Source of the DNA: a virus | Lineage: Duplodnaviria; Heunggongvirae; Uroviricota; Caudoviricetes | Virus record (IMG/VR): IMGVR_UViG_3300012352_000310 | Location: 64,001 to 114,375 of that record | Length of the DNA: 50,375 bases | Strand: one strand, 5' to 3' | In this document: piece after piece, positions 3,131 to 27,187 of the stretch | How positions within the stretch are numbered: position 1 is the first letter of the stretch | Layout: each line of letters starts with the position of its first letter | Position numbers and translations under genes: made by a program | Notes under the pieces: model-generated | Databases searched by the model: none | Seen by the model: the letters and a program-made list of their open reading frames with translations, nothing else | Told to the model about the DNA's origin: nothing

Positions 3131-4202
3131 CGTCGTCACCATCTAGAACTTCAGCCATTTCACGTTCGATGTCTTCGTCTCTGACTAGTTCACCATGCGA
3201 AACTTGATAGTTTTCTTTTACCCAAGATTGGAATGTTGGATCGCTTAGAATAGACATCCAGAATTCTTTAGAATCAGTTTCTTTGATTCTCCACTTCTTA
3301 GCTTCGACTTCACCAGTTGAAGAATCAACTTTAGAATACCAACCATTGCTTGGCTTTACAACATGCTTAGATTCAAGAGCCATTTCCAGCAAACCTGACC
3401 ATTTGCTTAGACCGCCTTCGTACTTAACACAGACAGGAATCTTAGACTTTTCACGAACATAACGAGATTTCTCAACGTTGATGATGAAGTTGTAACCAAT
3501 GACTTCAGTGCCATCTTTTTCTTGTTGACGACCCAAGATAAAGATGTTGTCAGCAGACAGATAAACACCTGTACCACCAGAAACGATTGCCTTTGGATAT
3601 AGACCTTGCTCCATGTAGATATGGTTGACTGCAACCATTGGAATATCTAAGCGGTTTAGATATGGAGTGATCATGCGGAAGATAGACTTCATCTGCTTTG
3701 CACGACTCATGTCTTGAACTGATTTGCCTTCGATGGCATCATCCATTTCTTTCTTAGAAGACATGTTACCAAGTGAGTCAACAACGAAGATGACACGATC
3801 ACCACGATCTAAGTTTTCAAGCTGCTTGATTACGTCAAACTTGAATTCTTCCATGTTCATCACTGGGACGTGAAGAATACGGTTCGTGTCGATGTTGAGT
3901 GAGCTGAAGTAAGCTGTTGGCGTACCGAATTCACAGTCATAGAATACCATGACCGCATCTGGGTATTTGTCCATGTAAGACTTAGCCATGATCAAAGAGA
4001 ACATTGACTTGAAGTGCTTTGATGGACCACACCAGAGAGTTAAGCCAGGAACGAAACCACCGTCTAGTTCTCCCGATAGAGCAACGTTCATTGCTGGGAT
4101 TGCGGTTTGAATCATGTCCTTCTTAGTGAAGTACTTTGACTGTGATAACACAGCAGAATCTTTGATTGTAGAATTCTTTTTAATTTTGTCTAGTAGACTC
4201 AT
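3123..4202 (-). CDS. uvsX: UvsX RecA-like recombinase
   Basis: GPSKHFKS P-loop, YDCEFG, VVDSLGN, VNHIY, SGGTG. Start trimmed to MSLLDK (AAGGA SD). Confidence 0.97.
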   Translation of the reverse strand: MSLLDKIKKNSTIKDSAVLSQSKYFTKKDMIQTAIPAMNVALSGELDGGFVPGLTLWCGPSKHFKSMFSLIMAKSYMDKYPDAVMVFYDCEFGTPTAYFSSLNIDTNRILHVPVMNMEEFKFDVIKQLENLDRGDRVIFVVDSLGNMSSKKEMDDAIEGKSVQDMSRAKQMKSIFRMITPYLNRLDIPMVAVNHIYMEQGLYPKAIVSGGTGVYLSADNIFILGRQQEKDGTEVIGYNFIINVEKSRYVREKSKIPVCVKYEGGLSKWSGLLEMALESKHVVKPSNGWYSKVDSSTGEVEAKKWRIKETDSKEFWMSILSDPTFQSWVKENYQVSHGELVRDEDIEREMAEVLDGDDDE

Positions 4203-4521: not shown

Positions 4522-5094
4522 TTACACGTAATGTAGATATGTGGAGACGATATATTTTGAACCACTGATTGGTTGCATACCTTTATGAGGGTACATCCAC
4601 ATCGGCGGAAACATTACCATTCTACCACGTTTTGGCTGAACTTTTAATTCTTTTTGACTTCCAAAGTTATCTTTGAAGACTGTCTCTCCACCCTCAATGA
4701 CGTCATTCAAATAGTAAAACATCACTAAGAATCTTCTTGCTGAAGGATAGTCGCCAACGTCAGTGTGCCAGCCGAACTGATCTTTCTGATTAGCATCATA
4801 TCTCTTCATTCTAACTTCTTCCATGCCAATCTGCTCTGGAAAGAATTCCACAGATGTTTTCTCTGCATAGAACTCTAGCATCCTTTTAGTGATACTATAG
4901 AACATGGCTTGCTCATCTGCAAATTCGGCATGTGTGGTTAAGTTTAACTCTTTAAACGACTTGTAGTCTTGTTTCCAAGAAGAATCTCTTAGTACCAAGT
5001 CTTTTGTAGAGTCAAACTTGTTTATTAGGTCATCACACAATTCTTGTGGAAGAACATCGTCAACGACCATAATGTAATCTGCTAAGTTTTTCAT
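4522..5094 (-). CDS. 2OG-Fe(II) oxygenase (prolyl-4-hydroxylase-like family)
   Basis: HxD (WHTD), YLNDVIEGGET, distal His (YPHKG) and a terminal KY motif. Confidence 0.9.
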   Translation of the reverse strand: MKNLADYIMVVDDVLPQELCDDLINKFDSTKDLVLRDSSWKQDYKSFKELNLTTHAEFADEQAMFYSITKRMLEFYAEKTSVEFFPEQIGMEEVRMKRYDANQKDQFGWHTDVGDYPSARRFLVMFYYLNDVIEGGETVFKDNFGSQKELKVQPKRGRMVMFPPMWMYPHKGMQPISGSKYIVSTYLHYV

Positions 5095-7613
5095 GAGAAA
5101 AAATCTTCCAAAGATGCAGTCTCTTCAGCTCTCCAACCGATAGCATCTAGAATACTTTTTGCTGGATCTAAGAAAGCTTTCTCAAACTGAGTATCGTTGT
5201 CAATGTACTGGTGCAATCCAAACTCTGGAGGTAGAATGTTATAGAAACCAATCACGTCTTCACGAAGTGGATTGCGAGGATTCAAGTGGATGTACTTGAT
5301 CTTTTCACCATCCTTAATCACCTCATACTTGTTCTGAGTACCAGATTGTTGAAGCATGTAGTTGTACAAGATTGCAGCACGAGAGTTAATCGGTGTTCCC
5401 TTCTTGTAAATTAGCTTCTTGTCCATGTAATCTCTTACCGACGATACACCACGAGGGAAGGCCTTATCTTCAGCAGGAAGTGCTGCAAACTTATTCCTGA
5501 ACTCAGCAATAAATTTCTGAGTTTCCGCTTCAGTCCCGTTAATGAGGATGTTGAATAGATCCTTGAAAGCCGCGCGGCATGGAGCCGGCGTGGACGACTT
5601 GATCGCTTCAATGCCCATGATCTTGAGCTTAGGCTTGGCATAACGAACTCCTTCATTGTCCCACACGTTTAAGATGTAACGTTTCTTAGCAGTCCAGATA
5701 CCGCGATTAGCGATACCTTCTCGTTTCATTGAGATTCGGTGCTTATATGCGTTGCAGTTTTCTTTAAGTTGTTTGAAGGCAACATCAAGAACATCCGTCT
5801 CGATCTTGGAGCAAACTTTGTCGAGGAAGTCGACTTTCTTAGATGTTTCGGCGTCTGGCATGACAGAGTTAACAAGATCAGCCAAACCGGCGTAAACAGA
5901 ATCAGTGTCAATAGCAATAACATAATCTTTTTCAGTCTTAAGTGCTTTGTTTAGAAAACCATTCACATGTTTTTCAGCCCACTTAATAATGAACTGACCA
6001 GTGATAGTAATACCTTCTGCGATCTCCATAGTGAAGTAGCGGAAGTAGCGGTTACCCATCGCACCATAAAGAGAGTTCAGAAGAATCTTAATGGCTGTCT
6101 GCTGGTTTTCAAAGTGAGCGATATCACGTTCGATTCGATACATTTCTTGCTTGTTAGACTTGTCAGCCTTTTCAAGCTCTTTCTTCGAATCCAACATCTT
6201 CTTCTTAATCGTAACACGTTCATCGTACATTTGTTCAATGATCTTAGGCATGAAGCCCTGTTTGTGATTAGAGAAGTATTGACCAGTTGCAGCCATAGAA
6301 GCATTTTCACGAGTGTTTGTGTAACCCGCAAGCATTTTATCTACAGTGATTCCTGGCTCGACTTGGCCTTTCATGATTGTTTCAGGAGACATATTCCATT
6401 GAACAATGATGTTAGGATAGAGTGAGTTAACGTCGAATGAACAAACCCAGTCATGAACTCCACACTGTGGATCCTTAACGTAACCGCCGTCGTAATCACC
6501 TTTGAACTTGTTTACGTTCGGTGGAACGATGATGTTGTCAGCTAGCAATGTGCGGTGAATCAGTTGATCCCAGATAGCAGTTGTGCCAAAAGTGTCAGAG
6601 TAATTCACACCAGCTTTGTAGGCCATAGTCATACAAAGCGTAATCATAGCGATCTTGTCTTCCATACGATCGACAAGCCACACGTCACGGATGTTGTAGT
6701 CAATATACTTTTGGTGGTTTTCTTCATACAACTCAGCCAAGCTAGCGTGTTCTTCATAGCTCAACTTACGTTCACCAAGCACAACTTCAGCGATCGTATC
6801 TAGACGATAGTTTTCTTGTGGACCGAATGAATAGCCGAACTTTTGGAATAGATCCATATAGTCCAACTGCGCGATGCCGATCAGGTCGTACATCTGCACT
6901 TGACCCTTACGCATAGTGACCATCTTTTCGTCAACCTGACCCCAAGGTGAAAGCTTCTTCACCCAGTCTTCACCCATGATGCGGTTGATTCTATTAACGA
7001 GATATGGAATATCGAAGCCACGAATGTTCCAACCAGTGACAGCATCTGGGCAAGTGAATTCGTCATGCCAGAAGTTTACAAAGAACTTAAGCAGATGATA
7101 TTCATCTACACACTTAGTATAGACGATTCTAGTATCTTTTAGTAGAGCATTCTCAACGTCATAGTCACGAAGACCCCAGACGTAGTAGGTATCTATGATG
7201 TTGTCATAGATTGTAATCGCGGTGATTGGATGTTCTGCTTTTGATGGCTCTGGGAAGCCTTGGTCGGACTTAACTTCGATATCGATGTTGTGAACACGAA
7301 TCTTGTTTCGGTCGAATTGAATATCGCCAGGAAATTGCTCAGCGATAAATTGCGCAATGTAGTTTGTGTTGCCATACACAGTGAAGTTTTCGATCGAGTC
7401 ATACTTCTCGATAAACTCCTTAGCCTCGCGCATACTGTCAAACTTTACAGCATCGACATTAGTGCCGTCCAGTGCTGTGAACTTTGAGCCGCCTTTACCT
7501 TTAACGTAAAGAGTCGGCTTGAACGGGATCTTACGCTTTACGCGTTGACCGTCTTCATAACCGCGGTACAGCAAGTTGTTGCCATAGCGATTGATTGAGG
7601 TATAAAAACGCAT
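5091..7613 (-). CDS. 43: T4 gp43-like family B DNA polymerase
   Basis: Exonuclease DIEV, GWNIRGFDIPY and YNIRD; polymerase SFDVNSLYP, KILLNSLYG, IDTDS and KKRY. No intein or intron seen. Confidence 0.98.
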   Translation of the reverse strand: MRFYTSINRYGNNLLYRGYEDGQRVKRKIPFKPTLYVKGKGGSKFTALDGTNVDAVKFDSMREAKEFIEKYDSIENFTVYGNTNYIAQFIAEQFPGDIQFDRNKIRVHNIDIEVKSDQGFPEPSKAEHPITAITIYDNIIDTYYVWGLRDYDVENALLKDTRIVYTKCVDEYHLLKFFVNFWHDEFTCPDAVTGWNIRGFDIPYLVNRINRIMGEDWVKKLSPWGQVDEKMVTMRKGQVQMYDLIGIAQLDYMDLFQKFGYSFGPQENYRLDTIAEVVLGERKLSYEEHASLAELYEENHQKYIDYNIRDVWLVDRMEDKIAMITLCMTMAYKAGVNYSDTFGTTAIWDQLIHRTLLADNIIVPPNVNKFKGDYDGGYVKDPQCGVHDWVCSFDVNSLYPNIIVQWNMSPETIMKGQVEPGITVDKMLAGYTNTRENASMAATGQYFSNHKQGFMPKIIEQMYDERVTIKKKMLDSKKELEKADKSNKQEMYRIERDIAHFENQQTAIKILLNSLYGAMGNRYFRYFTMEIAEGITITGQFIIKWAEKHVNGFLNKALKTEKDYVIAIDTDSVYAGLADLVNSVMPDAETSKKVDFLDKVCSKIETDVLDVAFKQLKENCNAYKHRISMKREGIANRGIWTAKKRYILNVWDNEGVRYAKPKLKIMGIEAIKSSTPAPCRAAFKDLFNILINGTEAETQKFIAEFRNKFAALPAEDKAFPRGVSSVRDYMDKKLIYKKGTPINSRAAILYNYMLQQSGTQNKYEVIKDGEKIKYIHLNPRNPLREDVIGFYNILPPEFGLHQYIDNDTQFEKAFLDPAKSILDAIGWRAEETASLEDFFS

Positions 7614-7678: not shown

Positions 7679-7981
7679 TTACTTTTGAAGACCTTGAAGA
7701 GCGCCTGCTCCTGCGATAACGATACCGGCACCGAAGATTCGGTTGTATTCATTTTCGACTTGTTGATTCAAATCAAATTCTGCTGTGATATTTGATTCGT
7801 ATAAAGAAATATTGTCACCAAACGGGATGAATTCTTGAAGTGCAACACCTGCTCTGCCTGGTTCAATTTCTTGCATAACCATTTGTGCTGGGTTCTTTAA
7901 CACAACCTTTCCGTCTTGACGAGACTTAACTTCAGTCAGAACGATTTCACCAGTGCTAAGTCTAAAACCACGAATTGTCAT
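7679..7981 (-). CDS. hypothetical protein, possible Sm-like beta-barrel
   Basis: 100-aa ORF coupled to the GNAT gene by an ATGA overlap; N-terminal RLSTGEIVLTEV pattern. The fold is an inference. Confidence 0.6.
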   Translation of the reverse strand: MTIRGFRLSTGEIVLTEVKSRQDGKVVLKNPAQMVMQEIEPGRAGVALQEFIPFGDNISLYESNITAEFDLNQQVENEYNRIFGAGIVIAGAGALQGLQK

Positions 7982-8547
7982 TGTGTAATCCTAAAAATGT
8001 TTGCTAAAAACTTCTGTTGATTTATCAGAAGCATATCATATAACGCTATGCGATCAAGCGCAGCGTCAGCCATAGGTGCTAGCATATCTTTTTTCAATAC
8101 TAGATCTGCTCTAGCTTCACTACCTTGTATAGTTATAACGTGTACTTCGTTCTTTTTGGCGATGCTTCTAACTGCTTTATTTTCAGTTAAGCAATGCATA
8201 AAAAGTTTATCGATATTGTGAGCTGTCGCCCATGTAATGGCACGATCGAATAACTGTGTACCTAGTCCACGATTACGAAAGTTCTTATGAACTGTAAAAC
8301 CGATTTCAGCAGTATTGTCACTCATTACAGAGATATGCATAGTTGCTATAACACCATCAACTGATTTATCGTAGATACCAAACCATTGGTTGTTGTCTCT
8401 ATTCCAACTGTCTTGAACATACTTAGTGATGATTTCTTCAGTAGGCATGTATCCAAAACGAAGTCTTAGATCTTCGCGTTCTAGAGAAAGAAGGTGCCGA
8501 AGCACCTCCTCTCTTTGAAGCTCATGAGTAAGCTTAATCGGTGTCAT
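7978..8547 (-). CDS. GNAT-family N-acetyltransferase
   Basis: AEIGFTVHKNFRNRGLGTQL (acetyl-CoA-binding R/QxxGxG motif), N-terminal DLRLRFG, and CLTENKAV. Confidence 0.88.
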   Translation of the reverse strand: MTPIKLTHELQREEVLRHLLSLEREDLRLRFGYMPTEEIITKYVQDSWNRDNNQWFGIYDKSVDGVIATMHISVMSDNTAEIGFTVHKNFRNRGLGTQLFDRAITWATAHNIDKLFMHCLTENKAVRSIAKKNEVHVITIQGSEARADLVLKKDMLAPMADAALDRIALYDMLLINQQKFLANIFRITQ

Positions 8548-8655: not shown

Positions 8656-9126
8656 TTATTCGCCTTCGCGAAGGAATTGTTTTTCGCTCTTTGACTTAAC
8701 TTCAATTTTCTTTGGCTTCTTTTCTTCAGGGATAACACGTTCAAGGAATACCTTTAGCATGCCATTGAAGATTTCAGCGTCTTTCACTTCAACTTGGTCG
8801 TTGAGTGCGAATGTACGAGTGAACGCTCGGTTTGCGATACCTTTGAATAGGTAATCTGCACTGGAATCTTCTCCAGTGTTTCCACGAACTACTAGCTTGC
8901 CACCGTCGATTTCAATCTCGACTTCTGACTTGCTAAAACCAGCAACAGCAAGCTCAATGACGTAAGTGTTTTCACCAGTCTTCTTGATGTTGTATGGAGG
9001 ATAGTTGGGAATGTTTTTGGTCATGTCGTCATGCAGTTTTTGCATGCGATTGAATTGATCATCGAATCCGACGAAGAATTTGTCGAAGTCTTTGATTTGA
9101 CCAAAGATAGATGGTAGTGATGTCAT
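8656..9126 (-). CDS. hsp20: small heat-shock protein (Hsp20/IbpA family)
   Basis: NYPPYNI, IELAVAGF, YLFKGIANRAFTRTF, NGMLKVFL and the C-terminal IEV motif. Confidence 0.96.
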   Translation of the reverse strand: MTSLPSIFGQIKDFDKFFVGFDDQFNRMQKLHDDMTKNIPNYPPYNIKKTGENTYVIELAVAGFSKSEVEIEIDGGKLVVRGNTGEDSSADYLFKGIANRAFTRTFALNDQVEVKDAEIFNGMLKVFLERVIPEEKKPKKIEVKSKSEKQFLREGE

Positions 9127-9132
9127 AGTTTT

Positions 9133-9147
9133 CTCCTATTAAGCGAG
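9133..9147 (-). promoter_or_regulatory. ROSE-like RNA thermometer hairpin over the hsp20 Shine-Dalgarno
   Basis: CUCGCU-UAAU-AGGAG: the U(U/C)GCU motif with a bulged G pairing to the SD, as in ROSE elements of ibpA-type genes. Confidence 0.6.
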
Positions 9148-9160
9148 TTAAGTTGATATT

Positions 9161-9364
9161 CTCTACCCCGAAGGCGTAGAGGTTGCCGGTTACTTAATCC
9201 GGCGCTGACTTACGGCGCAGCAGTGTAATTACGCCTGTAGCTTACGGCTACTACTCGGACGCCTGAAACTATCCTAAGACAGTTTCTAACCGGTAACGCC
9301 TAACGGGCCCTAAGGTGGGTTTAGTGGCACATTTAACGACGTGCCAAGTCATCCAGTTATGGAT
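9161..9364 (-). ncRNA. putative structured non-coding RNA / long structured leader (7-8 hairpins, multiway junction)
   Basis: Dense inverted repeats at 9351-9364, 9326-9345, 9308-9319, 9265-9286, 9237-9251, 9202-9218 and 9161-9181 (cUUCGg loop); long-range helix CCGGUUA/UAACCGG; three AGGCGU motifs; no ORF. Confidence 0.65.
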
Positions 9365-9555
9365 TATTCTGCAGCGCCTTCAGCTTGCTTTGCAGCAGCT
9401 TCGGCTTGTGCTAGCGCGGCCGCCTGTGGCGCACCTTGCTCTTGAATCTTGTTAATCACAGAAGCAACTGCTTCAAATGGTTGTTTACCCAAGGAACCAA
9501 GAATAATGTTAACTTCATTCACAGTCAGTTCAAGCTTGATCATGTATTTCTCCAA
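9364..9555 (-). CDS. small hypothetical protein (63 aa)
   Basis: GGAG SD; helical Ala/Gln-rich tail; directly follows regA. Confidence 0.7.
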   Translation of the reverse strand: MEKYMIKLELTVNEVNIILGSLGKQPFEAVASVINKIQEQGAPQAAALAQAEAAAKQAEGAAE

Positions 9556-9558
9556 TAG

Positions 9559-9984
9559 TTAAGATGCGGCTTTCTTAGAGCCAATGTTATATTTGGCAAC
9601 GAGTTGCCATTCAGTTTTCTCTTTGAAAGAGACCACTTTAATCTGCGACAGAGCTGTTTGTGCTTCAGCTGCCGACGGATTATTTATCTTCAGAAGACCC
9701 CAGTCTTGCAGAAGTTTTGCAATAGTGTTACGACGCTCGATATCTCCAGTAGAGATATTTGCTTCTTTTCCGTCTAATGCAAACAATTCTTTAAAATGCA
9801 CGATGAAGTATCTACCTTGCTTATGCAAGATATGGCAAGATTGATACAAGGTTTTGTCTTTACGAGATGCTACTCCAATACGCGTGAGTGTTTCTCGTAC
9901 TTTTAAGAAATTGTCTGGTTCTGGAAGGATAATTTCCAGCATGGACTCTGGTGTCCAATCAAAGTAAATCAATTCAGTGTTCAT
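9559..9984 (-). CDS. regA: RegA translational repressor
   Basis: FLKVRETLTRIG...LYQSCHILHKQGRYFIVHFKELFALDG signature; follows gene 62. Confidence 0.97.
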   Translation of the reverse strand: MNTELIYFDWTPESMLEIILPEPDNFLKVRETLTRIGVASRKDKTLYQSCHILHKQGRYFIVHFKELFALDGKEANISTGDIERRNTIAKLLQDWGLLKINNPSAAEAQTALSQIKVVSFKEKTEWQLVAKYNIGSKKAAS

Positions 9985-10019: not shown

Positions 10020-10027
10020 TATTTATA
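10020..10027 (-). promoter_or_regulatory. T4-type late promoter TATAAATA upstream of regA
   Basis: Exact consensus in the 62-regA intergenic gap. Confidence 0.7.
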
Positions 10028-10035
10028 CATCTAAA

Positions 10036-10416
10036 TTACTTGCCGCCTGTATTGTACGCTGCGCGGAGTTCACTTATCTGCGTTTCACTAAGCAATTCTA
10101 GTGCTTCTGCAGCACGTGATGCTGAGTACTCATACGCTTGCATAATAATCTTCAAGTCATCAGAATTTTGATCTTTCTTATGCCACTTTGAGAAACGCTT
10201 CTTCGGTTTAACTGATTTCATATAGAACGCAAACTGCCAGTCTTTTGGGATGCTTGCATACTTATTCATTTCGTTGGCATAGAAAATCGTATCAGGAAAA
10301 TACGATAGACCACGGTTAATCATGAAAGGAACGTAGTCCTTTTCGGATTGAGGATCTTCTTTTAGTAGATCCTTCTTAGTAGTATTGATGGCATTAAGGA
10401 AGTCGAAGAAGCTCAT
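10036..10416 (-). CDS. 62: clamp loader small subunit gp62
   Basis: FDFLNAIN...YVPFMINRGLSYFPDT...KKRFSKWHK; located between 44 and regA. Confidence 0.92.
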   Translation of the reverse strand: MSFFDFLNAINTTKKDLLKEDPQSEKDYVPFMINRGLSYFPDTIFYANEMNKYASIPKDWQFAFYMKSVKPKKRFSKWHKKDQNSDDLKIIMQAYEYSASRAAEALELLSETQISELRAAYNTGGK

Positions 10417-11122: not shown

Positions 11123-12061
11123 TCACTTAAACTTAAGTTGGCCCATGATTTCAGTTAGGGCAGCCATAGTATTGATTTCACGGTCAGCGACGAAAGCTGC
11201 TCGGTACTGGTACTCAGCAAGAATTAGAACTAGCTGAGGAATACTGCCAGTCTCAATATAGTCTACAGCTTTGTCATACAACTTGCGAAACAGTTCAGTA
11301 GATTCAGTGTCAGAATTCTTGCCAACCCATTTGCGAACTTCAGTAAAGTTCTTACCTTTCAGGTCTTTTACCAACTGAACATAGGACTCTTCACCAAGGT
11401 TTACAAGAAGTCCGGCATCGATCTTGCCAGACACTGAGTATCGCTGAAGTTCATTTAGGATACGACGATAGTCTGGAAAATGCTTTGCAACTAGCTCTGC
11501 AACTACTTGCTGATCATACTCAATCTTCTCAGTCTTCAGAATACTAATGACACGCTTAAAGAATTGAGCCATGATCTTAGGCTTATCGCTGTTCTCAATC
11601 TTAAACTCTACAACAGCACAACGTGAGTGCAGAGGTTCAATGATTCGATTCTTAAAGTTGCAAGTGAAGATGAATCGGCAGTTGTTAGAAAATTCCTCGA
11701 TGAAGCCGCGAAGCGCAGGTTGAGTGGAATTGGGATTAAGATAATCCGCCTCATCGAGGATAACAACCTTTTTAGAATCTGTCAGAGAAACAGAAGATGC
11801 GAAGTTTTTGATCTTGCTACGTAGAACATCGATACCGGATTCTTCGGAACCGTTAATGAAAAGATATTCTGCACCAACTTCGTTACACAAAGCTTTTGCA
11901 ACGGTAGTCTTACCAACTCCAGCTCCACCTGCGAACAGGAAGTTCGGCAGTTCACCGGAGTCAATAAACTGCTTGAAAGTCTTCTTCATAGACTCAGGCA
12001 GAATACAATCATCGATAGTTTGAGGGCGGTACTTTTCAACAAACAAATATTGGTCACTCAT
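11123..12061 (-). CDS. 44: clamp loader large subunit gp44 (RFC-like AAA+)
   Basis: EKYRP, GGAGVGKTT, ILDEAD and the SRC motif (LHSRC). Confidence 0.97.
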   Translation of the reverse strand: MSDQYLFVEKYRPQTIDDCILPESMKKTFKQFIDSGELPNFLFAGGAGVGKTTVAKALCNEVGAEYLFINGSEESGIDVLRSKIKNFASSVSLTDSKKVVILDEADYLNPNSTQPALRGFIEEFSNNCRFIFTCNFKNRIIEPLHSRCAVVEFKIENSDKPKIMAQFFKRVISILKTEKIEYDQQVVAELVAKHFPDYRRILNELQRYSVSGKIDAGLLVNLGEESYVQLVKDLKGKNFTEVRKWVGKNSDTESTELFRKLYDKAVDYIETGSIPQLVLILAEYQYRAAFVADREINTMAALTEIMGQLKFK

Positions 12062-25888: not shown

Positions 25889-27160
25889 TTACATTAGGTT
25901 TGTGACCTTAACCTTACGGTAGTAGATGTTTGCGCCGCTGTTGATAGCAGTGAATGGGTTAGAAACCATGCCGTAGCGAGTCTTGAAACCAATCTTTGGT
26001 TGGAATGTCGCTGGGTCGATAGCACGAACCTTTTCTAGTGGAACGTATGGGCAGTAGAACATACCTGCATCGAATGCAGATGTACCCTTGTAGCCAACAA
26101 CGAAGAACTGGCTTGTAGACTGGTTTGCGCTGTATGGATCAACATAAACCTTGTACTTGCCGTTTAGAACACCAGCGAATGTGGTGCTTGCTTCGTCAAC
26201 GTTTAGACCAGTGCTTAGAGCTGGAGCGTAGTCTAGAACACCTGCCATAGCTAGTGCGGATGCAACATCGCTAGAACAGATGATGAAGTTACCACGGCCA
26301 CGACGTGTTGTCTGAGCGATGGCGTTAGCTTCACGTTCGATTTGGAACAGAAGACCCTTGAACTTCTCAACAGACCAACGGCCGTTAGAGTCAACGTCCA
26401 AGTCGAAAGTACCAGCAGTAGCTGTACCGTATTCAGCACCAGTCTTTGCAGACTTGTAAACTGTACGAACAACTTCGCGGTTGATTTCGTTCAAGATTTC
26501 TTGAGTTAGGATGTTGCTTAGTTCGCCTTCAGCGTTTAGACCATGAACAGATTGCAAGTCTTGTGCAAGTTCAGTGGTGTACTCTGCCTTCAATGCACGT
26601 GTTTGTGCAGTGACGGTAGTCTTTTCAATGCTGAATGCCATTTGACCGAACGCAACACCAGCACCTAGGTCTTCTGCATCAGCAGTAGACATACCAGTAC
26701 CGTTTGTGTAAGTGCCGTCAACTGGGTTAGAACCAGCGTGTGTGCCTGTACCAGCGAAGTCAGTGTCTGCTTCGTTGAATAGAGCTTCAGTACCAGCTTG
26801 AGTAGCGTACTTGCTCTTCATAGCGAAGATCAAACCTGTTGGTTGTGTCATTGGCTGAACACCGCAGATGTCATAAGCGATCATCTGTGGAGCTGCACGG
26901 CGAACTAGGGAGATTAGAACTGGGTCGTAACCGGCCATGTTTGCGTTTGTACCAGCGCCACCAAGTGCTAGACCTGTGCCACCAGCGTTAGCAATTGGAG
27001 TTGCTTCAGCTAGGAACTGATCAGCCTTGATCATTTCGCGTTCTTGGTTTTCTAGTAGAACTGCGGTAACTTCCTTACGGTAGTTATCCTTGATTTCTGG
27101 AGCGCCTGCGGCTTCCAGAATTGGTTGCCACTTCTTTAGTAGATCTTGACGAGTAGTCAT
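25889..27160 (-). CDS. 23: major capsid protein gp23
   Basis: LLENQE, YDPVLISLVRR, GVQPMTQPTGLIFAM, RALKAEYT and YCPYVPL. Confidence 0.98.
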   Translation of the reverse strand: MTTRQDLLKKWQPILEAAGAPEIKDNYRKEVTAVLLENQEREMIKADQFLAEATPIANAGGTGLALGGAGTNANMAGYDPVLISLVRRAAPQMIAYDICGVQPMTQPTGLIFAMKSKYATQAGTEALFNEADTDFAGTGTHAGSNPVDGTYTNGTGMSTADAEDLGAGVAFGQMAFSIEKTTVTAQTRALKAEYTTELAQDLQSVHGLNAEGELSNILTQEILNEINREVVRTVYKSAKTGAEYGTATAGTFDLDVDSNGRWSVEKFKGLLFQIEREANAIAQTTRRGRGNFIICSSDVASALAMAGVLDYAPALSTGLNVDEASTTFAGVLNGKYKVYVDPYSANQSTSQFFVVGYKGTSAFDAGMFYCPYVPLEKVRAIDPATFQPKIGFKTRYGMVSNPFTAINSGANIYYRKVKVTNLM

Positions 27161-27187
27161 TTTATTTCCTTTTTGTCGTTAAATGGA

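Follow-up and report, generated by a model that had tools for sequence, protein, structure and literature searches.

Genomic context of the hsp20 leader

The DNA considered here is a window of 50,375 nucleotides (nt), the whole of the stretch that was analysed, taken from the 114-kb IMG/VR record IMGVR_UViG_3300012352_000310, whose source is an uncultured T4-like phage. Between the regA region and the small heat-shock gene hsp20 of this window lies a gap of 238 nt (9127-9364), which is a real, conserved and structured hsp20 mRNA leader, composed of a divergent, short ROSE-like module that is predicted to mask the Shine-Dalgarno (SD) sequence and an uncatalogued pseudoknotted domain. The relevant genes are all encoded on the minus strand and are given below from upstream to downstream; aa stands for amino acids and ORF for open reading frame.

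11123-12061, minus strand: clamp loader gp44
10036-10416, minus strand: clamp-loader subunit (Pfam Phage_clamp_A)
9559-9984, minus strand: regA (Pfam Translat_reg, 7e-49)
9364-9555, minus strand: 63-aa ORF, no family
8656-9126, minus strand: hsp20, 156 aa (Pfam HSP20, 3e-17), with its AUG (9124-9126) predicted to be unpaired
7978-8547, minus strand: GNAT acetyltransferase
5091-7613, minus strand: DNA polymerase gp43

The hsp20 gene has the SD sequence AGGAG, followed by the AUG 6 nt on. The only late-promoter consensus of the T4 type (TATAAATA) near the gap was found at 10020-10027 on the minus strand, 36 nt upstream of the regA start, and scanning of the gap itself revealed no TATAAATA, no sigma-70-like site and no minus-strand terminator. 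Since the nearest TATAAATA is located upstream of regA and none in the gap, the latter is probably an intercistronic leader in the window phage. In the window as a whole, TATAAATA occurs four times, always on the minus strand, which is not above chance (four or more copies in 20 of 100 shuffles). The 63-aa ORF has a tail rich in alanine and glutamine, and no family was found for it by Pfam search; it adjoins regA in many, not all, of the phages that possess the extended form of the leader described below.

Folding of the gap

On the minus strand, the gap was predicted to fold with an energy of -80.4 kcal/mol, compared with -64.7 +/- 4.6 kcal/mol for dinucleotide shuffles (z -3.42; none of 200 as good), and the z score of the plus strand was -1.88. 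Its G+C content is 47-52%, versus about 38-40% in the flanks, and a tRNA search of the gap found none. An earlier note on this DNA, made from the sequence alone, had described the gap as structured on the minus strand, which is borne out by these values. All hairpins and motifs named there are present on that strand, including three copies of AGGCGU and one of ACGCCU, and a terminator scan of the gap was empty, in agreement with its remark that no hairpin carries a terminator U-tract. It had also proposed a search for conservation and covariation in the regA-hsp20 gaps of related phages, and both were found, as described in the following sections.

The conserved 3' module

Relatives were collected by protein searches with Hsp20, which gave 80 viral contigs, and with the 63-aa ORF, which gave nine. 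Comparison of the gap with those contigs by BLASTN and nhmmer indicated that its 3' third is kept almost everywhere and that longer parts are kept in a subset. When the gap ends were aligned, a near-invariant 15-mer, CUCGCUUAAUAGGAG (CUCGCU-UAAU-AGGAG), was found 5-9 nt upstream of the ATG, preceded by an A/U-rich spacer and, before that, by a hairpin with compensating substitutions in its stem. This 3' module (window 9124-9190), in which the ROSE-like element corresponds to the last 65 nt of the leader, contains the following parts.

9161-9181, minus strand: ROSE-like hairpin I, CUCUAC(G)CC-UUCG-GGGUAGAG, a stable stem in which a bulged G is conserved
9148-9160, minus strand: A/U-rich single-stranded spacer, U-rich in many relatives, not in the window
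9133-9147, minus strand: ROSE-like hairpin II, CUC(G)CU-UAAU-AGGAG, in which the anti-SD UCGCU pairs with the SD AGGAG around a bulged G

Hairpin I has the core AYGCC...GGGU with an unpaired G, as in hairpin I of the Rfam family ROSE_3. In alignment A1, which comprises 128 non-redundant modules, it is 94% paired, with double-sided changes in six of the seven pairs, and pairing ranges from 94% to 99% across alignments. The covariation score of A1 was 0.369, compared with 0.123 in shuffles (none of 500 as good) and at most 0.123 when the partners were slid. In the window, hairpin I is followed by AAUAUCAAC with no U-tract, unlike an intrinsic terminator. U-runs follow it in many relatives, where weak termination may take place.

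The pairs of the 15-mer are C-G, U-A and C-G, then, beyond the bulged G, C-G and U-A, closed by the tetraloop UAAU. Because the members of A1 were chosen by this motif, hairpin II is unable to covary in that alignment, and its variants were therefore read from loci picked solely on the basis of Hsp20 homology. In freshwater relatives the hairpin reads CUCGCUU-AAUU-AAGGAG, in which a 2-nt insertion adds a U-A pair, and marine cyanophage contigs carry CUCGCUU-(AUAC, AUCU, AUUU, AAAUA and others)-AAGGAG, some of them with CUUGCUU, the other ROSE variant. The corresponding hairpin of pelagiphage HTVC008M is UUUGCUUU-AACA-AAAGGAGG, and one clade has ACU(G)UCU...GGAGGUU, retaining the bulged G despite different letters. 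Within the exact-motif family, changes are confined to the loop (UAAU, GAAA, AAAU, UAAA). In all natural variants the stem and its bulged G are preserved, and the apex alone changes. In an alignment of 77 modules fitted to a covariance model, pairing in hairpin II amounts to 99%, and C-G pairs change to U-G. The support for its stem therefore comes from how the sequences vary and from the ROSE signature, rather than from classical covariation. RNAfold gave hairpin II as the minimum-energy fold at 4-50 C, with the AUG unpaired in the predicted folds and free energies of -6.2 (4 C), -4.4 (20 C), -2.5 (37 C) and -1.9 kcal/mol (42 C).

Distribution and gene order in related phages

An exact pattern scan of IMG/VR detected the 15-mer in at least 119 contigs, and more than 180 contigs from uncultured T4-like phages carry the element, at the same site and in one copy per genome. 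Among 188 oriented loci, all but three, which are chance matches in GC-rich contexts, share the same neighbourhood where the contig extends far enough. The shared order is gp44, gp62, regA, sometimes the 63-aa ORF, the element, hsp20 (or an ORF of 61-78 aa and then hsp20), and gp43. In the 185 viral contigs, the 15-mer is nearly always located between regA (with or without the small ORF) and the hsp20 unit, upstream of gp43. The 15-mer together with the ATG is present in a single copy in the 114-kb genome, and this uniqueness rules out a general promoter or regulatory box.

In many relatives (such as L040:2245-2472, L012, L019 and L050), the ORF of 61-78 aa, which starts with MLQAINTSIDT... 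or MLNNINTSIDT..., separates the ROSE-like leader from hsp20, so that the leader there governs a two-gene unit. This ORF had no match in a Pfam search and is missing from the window.

The module also precedes the annotated hsp20 in the cultured cyanophages Syn1 and S-CRM01 (the latter with TATAAATA) and in the cultured pelagiphage HTVC008M, as well as in the single-cell virus AG-345-F15. In the record of the last (Marine virus AG-345-F15, MH319749), which carries no annotation, a strong manA RNA motif (173 bits) was detected between regA and hsp20 at L217:1991-2266, followed directly by a tRNA gene. Bacterial genomes contained four exact matches to the 15-mer, three of them in chance contexts and one on a phage-like contig in a metagenome-assembled genome labelled uncultured Aquiluna sp. 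(CAZKLA010000004.1). This 48-kb contig (locus at 3273-3337) carries the full extended leader, and its hsp20 (N-terminus MTQLPSMFG...) is close to that of the window. Either the contig comes from a phage and was mis-binned, or it points to the host.

In minimal relatives, whose leader consists of the 3' module, hairpin I comes immediately after either a sigma-70-like promoter or a late promoter with TATAAATA at -64 to -66. As the promoter adjoins hairpin I, the two-hairpin module represents the whole 5' untranslated region (UTR) in these phages. The position directly 5' of hsp20, the compensatory changes and the SD-masking hairpin at its end all favour the regulatory leader that the earlier note had offered as one of two alternatives.

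Such hairpins might also serve as structural punctuation only, stabilising or processing a polycistronic message (5'-end protection, RNase barriers or weak termination of the regA operon) with no sensing involved. The leader of relatives starting with a hairpin right after the late promoter, the U-runs that follow hairpin I in many of them, and the intercistronic position of the window element, for which TATAAATA is found only upstream of regA, would be in line with such a role. However, it leaves unexplained the invariant anti-SD/SD hairpin with its bulged G and the restriction of a single copy per genome to hsp20, and hairpin I of the window lacks a U-tract; we regard punctuation alone as very unlikely.

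Relationship to known ROSE elements

ROSE-like elements are defined by a U(U/C)GCU sequence imperfectly paired with the SD around a bulged G, 5' of small heat-shock genes, and heat induction is lost or weakened when the bulged G is deleted (PMC3669281, PMC11342760). The Pseudomonas ibpA ROSE has two hairpins in 61-62 nt, with a GC-rich, non-melting hairpin I and a free AUG (PMC3669281, PMC11342760). The phage element contains the imperfect U(U/C)GCU pairing with the SD and the bulged G in its 3'-proximal hairpin (9133-9147), with both UCGCU and UUGCU present among relatives. It is located in the 5' UTR directly 5' of a small heat-shock gene, the same position as in more than 180 loci, and has a stable GC-rich hairpin I and a start codon that is predicted to be unpaired.

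Among the closest parallels is the Pseudomonas ibpA ROSE_3 element (Krajewski et al. 2013, PMC3669281), which likewise has a small heat-shock gene downstream, two hairpins in about 65 nt, the AYGCC...GGGU core with a bulged G in hairpin I, the U(U/C)GCU-SD pairing with a bulged G in hairpin II, and an unpaired AUG. Three differences were observed: hairpin II of the phages has 5 bp and a tetraloop, two base pairs less on each side; the phage element follows late or early phage promoters or forms part of an operon, instead of following a sigma-32 promoter; and a pseudoknotted domain of 100-170 nt precedes the module in the window lineage. Compared with classical ROSE elements (rhizobia and Escherichia coli ibpA; three or four hairpins), the phage leader is similar in being a 5' UTR with several hairpins, the last of which uses U(U/C)GCU to mask the SD. 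The upstream hairpins of classical ROSE are thought to assist folding. The upstream part of the phage leader is no series of simple hairpins; it contains two covarying pseudoknots and invariant loops and, by Rfam search, shows no sequence similarity to the classical elements.

The earlier note had suggested an Rfam search that included ROSE. ROSE_3 (RF02523) was indeed the best match to 9105-9215 (12.1 bits, E = 2), in an alignment that spans both hairpins and includes the bulged G of hairpin I, yet it remained below threshold, and neither the window nor any of 19 relatives gave a relevant match at the gathering score. With E values of up to 10 allowed, the only matches were ROSE_3, freshwater-2 (12.1 bits, E 8.8), on which no literature was found, and a chance miRNA; neither Rfam ROSE nor ROSE_2 matched at this level. 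The element of cyanophage Syn1 scored 21.6 bits against ROSE_3. Scores of 12-22 bits, against a gathering score of 43, are explained by a hairpin II that is two base pairs shorter on each side. Because this score is not attained, the element was filed as a divergent ROSE-like variant and not as a member of the Rfam family. In the full-text literature, no paper was found that links a phage or cyanophage hsp20 to an RNA thermometer or that describes the upstream domain in phages.

The upstream pseudoknotted domain

The 5' 170 nt of the leader (window 9185-9364) represent a lineage-specific upstream domain, whose parts are listed from 5' to 3'. Pair counts are from alignment A2, which contains 27 sequences of the window subtype.

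9351-9364, minus strand: 5'-proximal hairpin AUCCA-UAAC-UGGAU, beginning at the stop codon of the 63-aa ORF
9326-9345, minus strand: hairpin GGCACG-UCGUUAAA-UGUGCC, replaced in relatives by a different variable hairpin or a pseudoknot
9308-9319, minus strand: P0, CCC-ACCUUA-GGG, 88.9% paired, C-G to U-A in three sequences
9290-9306, minus strand: P1, hairpin CCG...CGG, whose loop GGCGU (9296-9300) provides the 5' strand of pseudoknot PK1
9265-9286, minus strand: inserted hairpin GAAACUGUC-UUAG-GAUAGUUUC, with a 9-bp stem, between P1 and the 3' strand of PK1
9258-9262, minus strand: 3' strand of PK1, GCGUC, in the second AGGCGU copy; PK1 85-93% paired
9237-9251, minus strand: inserted hairpin GUAGC-CGUAA-GCUAC, accompanied by a second copy of AGGCGU
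9225-9235, minus strand: 5' strand of P3, GGCG (third AGGCGU copy), then the mini-palindrome G-U-AAUU-A-C, covarying
9204-9221, minus strand: hairpin a, GCUG-CGCCGUAAGU-CAGC, whose loop CGCC (9214-9217) pairs with GGCG of P3; 100% paired, four of four pairs covary
9185-9203, minus strand: hairpin b, GCCGG-AUUAAGUAA-CCGGC, with the conserved loop element AGUAA; 100% paired, four of five pairs covary

As a whole, the A2 structure is 92% paired, compared with 38-48% when slid, and its covariation score is 0.454 versus 0.155. No extended leader departs from the sequence YACCUURGG (9309-9317, within P0). The alignment of P1 is poor (60% by columns), and its variants CCGU/ACGG, CUGU/ACAG and ACGU/ACGU were read directly. 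PK1 joins the P1 loop (GAYGY; GGCGU in the window) with GCGUC and is fully compensated in L124, where GAUGU faces AUAUC. In P3, which is 97.5% paired, the loop of hairpin a supplies WCG as the partner of an upstream CGW, the middle pair being U-A in 16 sequences and A-U in 10; in the window this helix is displaced by one column, as GGCG/CGCC. The mini-palindrome, with the general form G-N-AAUU-N'-C (window 9225-9232; A2 columns 104-111), shows strict covariation of N and N' (pair 105/110: CG in 16 sequences, UA in six, AU in five), and could be a tetraloop capped by 2 bp, an RNA-RNA dimerisation site or a site acting at the DNA level.

The comparison also revises several pairings in the earlier note. 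Its hairpin GCGC-CGUAAGUCA-GCGC was placed at the right site in the wrong register, the covarying one being GCUG-CGCCGUAAGU-CAGC, and a hairpin does exist where CC-UUAG-GG had been drawn, with relatives giving CCC-ACCUUA-GGG as its pairing. The 7-bp long-range helix between CCGGUUA (9287-9293) and UAACCGG (9186-9192), which had been suggested to close a multiway junction, is complementarity only: four of its seven columns are present, and its UUA/UAA half is found, in only four of the 27 related leaders, and the junction is not conserved in relatives. It would use the 3' strand and loop of hairpin b and competes with that hairpin, which is 100% paired, with four of its five pairs covarying.

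The extended leader, which starts with the invariant YACCUURGG, was found in 127 of the 188 loci (about two thirds), the rest being devoid of the upstream domain. At least four structural subtypes of the domain could be distinguished; the covariance model R2 detected all of the 100 extended loci searched, with lower scores for the other subtypes. In subtype A, a P3-like loop pairing covaries too (CGU/ACG, GUGC/GCAU and GUGU/ACAU by direct reading). In subtype D (L002, L005, L054, L075, L079 and similar loci), CCAG...CCUUGG...CUGG...CCAAGG takes the place of hairpins a and b and appears by eye to be an H-type pseudoknot; this different fold implies that the accessory domain has been rebuilt several times around the ROSE-like core. 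The upstream domain of several relatives comes after a TATAAATA promoter and a 5' hairpin, and is therefore taken to be transcribed within the hsp20 leader. The hairpin AUCCA-UAAC-UGGAU of the window sits where some relatives have a UCCC-tetraloop-GGGA hairpin after the TATAAATA late promoter. No conserved ORF spans the upstream domain in 101 leaders, and a leader peptide or small ORF was rejected, since an ATG ORF covers the conserved motif in only 18 of the 101, in inconsistent frames.

A compact fold with two covarying pseudoknots and invariant unpaired ACCUUA and AGUAA is typical of aptamers, and the domain lies 5' of a possible expression platform, with a U-run after hairpin I in many relatives. 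The upstream domain might thus be a ligand-sensing riboswitch aptamer in tandem with the ROSE-like hairpin, so that hsp20 would answer to both a metabolite and temperature. On the other hand, the domain matches no Rfam family, even at E values up to 10, the existence of at least four subtypes is unusual for a single aptamer, variable hairpin insertions are tolerated inside it, and the downstream genes suggest no ligand. We consider a riboswitch very unlikely.

Regulation by a protein has also to be weighed. In this reading, which is compatible with a thermometer, phage Hsp20 or RegA would bind the 15-mer and/or the pseudoknotted domain as a translational operator, and repression would be relieved by titration, for example by aggregates. 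The near-invariance of CUCGCUUAAUAGGAG and YACCUURGG goes beyond the need of a 5-bp hairpin, and the adjacency to regA is conserved. The autogenous operator of T4 gene 32 consists of a 5' pseudoknot, an unstructured A/U-rich region and the ribosome-binding site, and the present leader resembles it as a T4-like phage leader with a pseudoknot, an A/U-rich stretch and an SD. It differs from that operator in the gene, in the pseudoknots and in having a structured SD hairpin, with nothing pointing to a cooperative single-strand-binding repressor. Moreover, minimal leaders lack the upstream domain, and nothing in the element is specific to RegA, whose sites are A/U-rich initiation regions with no defined fold. 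The translational operator of T4 gene 43, with its UAACUCG heptamer and its position between regA and gene 43, was considered as well and dropped, because the motif always precedes hsp20 or the small ORF and never gp43, and the ROSE reading accounts for the motif. In E. coli, IbpA binds its own ROSE-containing 5' UTR and represses its own translation (PMC10474464), and by analogy a similar feedback by phage Hsp20 would be a reasonable rival or addition to the thermometer. Overall, a protein-operated switch appears rather unlikely.

Insertions and repeated motifs of the window

The window leader is the longest but one among relatives and has two extra hairpins. At the insertion site of the first (9265-9286), the lineages L210, L193 and L032 carry unrelated hairpins. 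The second probably arose by local duplication, judging from short direct repeats in the window (GCCGUAAG twice and AGyUwCAGGCGU twice, with spacings of 28-32 nt). The three AGGCGU copies (9296-9301, 9259-9264 and 9231-9236) contribute the 5' strand of PK1, the 3' strand of PK1 and the 5' strand of P3, respectively, and the word recurs because it is nearly self-complementary. The alternative pairing of AGGCGU with ACGCCU that the earlier note envisaged is possible by sequence, also with AUGCCU through a G-U pair; it does not explain the conservation of AYGCC, which is equally kept in minimal leaders that lack AGGCGU.

These repeats had led the earlier note to think of a stand-alone non-coding RNA that sponges an RNA-binding protein, in the manner of CsrB/RsmZ. 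The window does show shared loops (UUAG twice, CGUAA twice) besides the three AGGCGU copies and, like those sponges, several hairpins in a row. However, the repeated hairpins are insertions and duplications found in the window alone, and the repeated loops are thus not conserved display sites; relatives have a single conserved GCGUC that is paired in the pseudoknot, not displayed in a loop. Whereas CsrB/RsmZ RNAs have conserved repeated GGA/ANGGA loops and their own transcription unit, the phage element has neither repeated GGA loops nor a gene of its own: the gap contains no promoter or terminator, and in every phage the element is contiguous, in cis, with the hsp20 ribosome-binding site. The idea of a protein sponge therefore fails, and we give it almost no credence.

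An 11-nt exact antisense match was noticed between the loop of the second hairpin (9330-9340) and the leader of gene 25889-27160 (27175-27185). It was discarded as a signal, being at chance level (shuffled gaps average 2.95 matches, and 88% have at least one) and located in a hairpin that is not conserved.

Proposed mechanism and its weight

Taken together, the gap is probably a cis-acting hsp20 leader in which a ROSE-like thermometer module is combined with a pseudoknotted accessory domain, and thermosensing would be the best-supported mechanism for the 3' module. In this model, the leader presents a stable hairpin I that is separated by an A/U-rich spacer from hairpin II, a weak helix of 5 bp formed by UCGCU-AGGAG pairing, with the AUG left free. 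In the cold, hairpin II would conceal the ribosome-binding site; warming, or another melting condition, would expose it, and more Hsp20 would be made. The 5' domain (P0, P1 with PK1, P3 with hairpin a, and hairpin b), enlarged in the window by the two inserted hairpins, would most likely tune this switch or stabilise or process the message.

Several observations weigh against this reading. The ROSE_3 score of 12.1 bits is far from the gathering score of 43, and none of the 19 relatives reaches it. The stem of hairpin II is near-invariant, with almost no true covariation (apart from C-G to U-G changes, double changes were seen just once or twice, in weak matches), and its conservation could instead reflect contact with a protein or the ribosome. 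The predicted melting is shallow: the unpaired probability of the SD is 0.09 at 4 C and 0.16 at 37 C, within an overall range of 0.09-0.25. By predicted SD masking, hsp20 ranks sixth of the 25 window genes, which is not significant, so that it was rejected as an outlier. The model does not account for the upstream domain of 170 nt, and phages with minimal leaders manage without it. In addition, RNAalifold proposed a competing fold, in which CCUUAGG pairs over a long range with CUUAAUAGG in the SD hairpin. The sequences did not confirm this pairing: both sides are invariant, and the loop-variant lineages L032 and L042/L082 break one of its pairs with no compensation. As all variants fit the local hairpin, including those that break the long-range pair, the local hairpin is favoured. 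At the same time, YACCUURGG is invariant even though its local partner differs between subtypes.

A more far-reaching version would treat the double-pseudoknot domain as a sensor or protein-binding RNA of a new class and as the gate of the thermometer, with temperature and a phage or host factor (such as free Hsp20 or a metabolite) as inputs and YACCUURGG switching between the local hairpin and pairing with the SD region. This is a tentative idea that we hold to be unlikely. If it were true, two inputs would determine how much chaperone is made by abundant freshwater T4-like phages.

Implications for aquatic phages

In aquatic T4-like phages (cyanophages, pelagiphages and the freshwater relatives described here), few host-like genes are as common as those for small heat-shock proteins. 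If the leader is a ROSE-type switch, the chaperone would be regulated post-transcriptionally, without the host heat-shock sigma factor. The upstream domain adds an uncatalogued structured RNA with good covariation, and the 65-nt leader with one bulged G represents a simple and tractable system. If the proposed mechanism holds, temperature would feed into the physiology of infection in both lakes and oceans.

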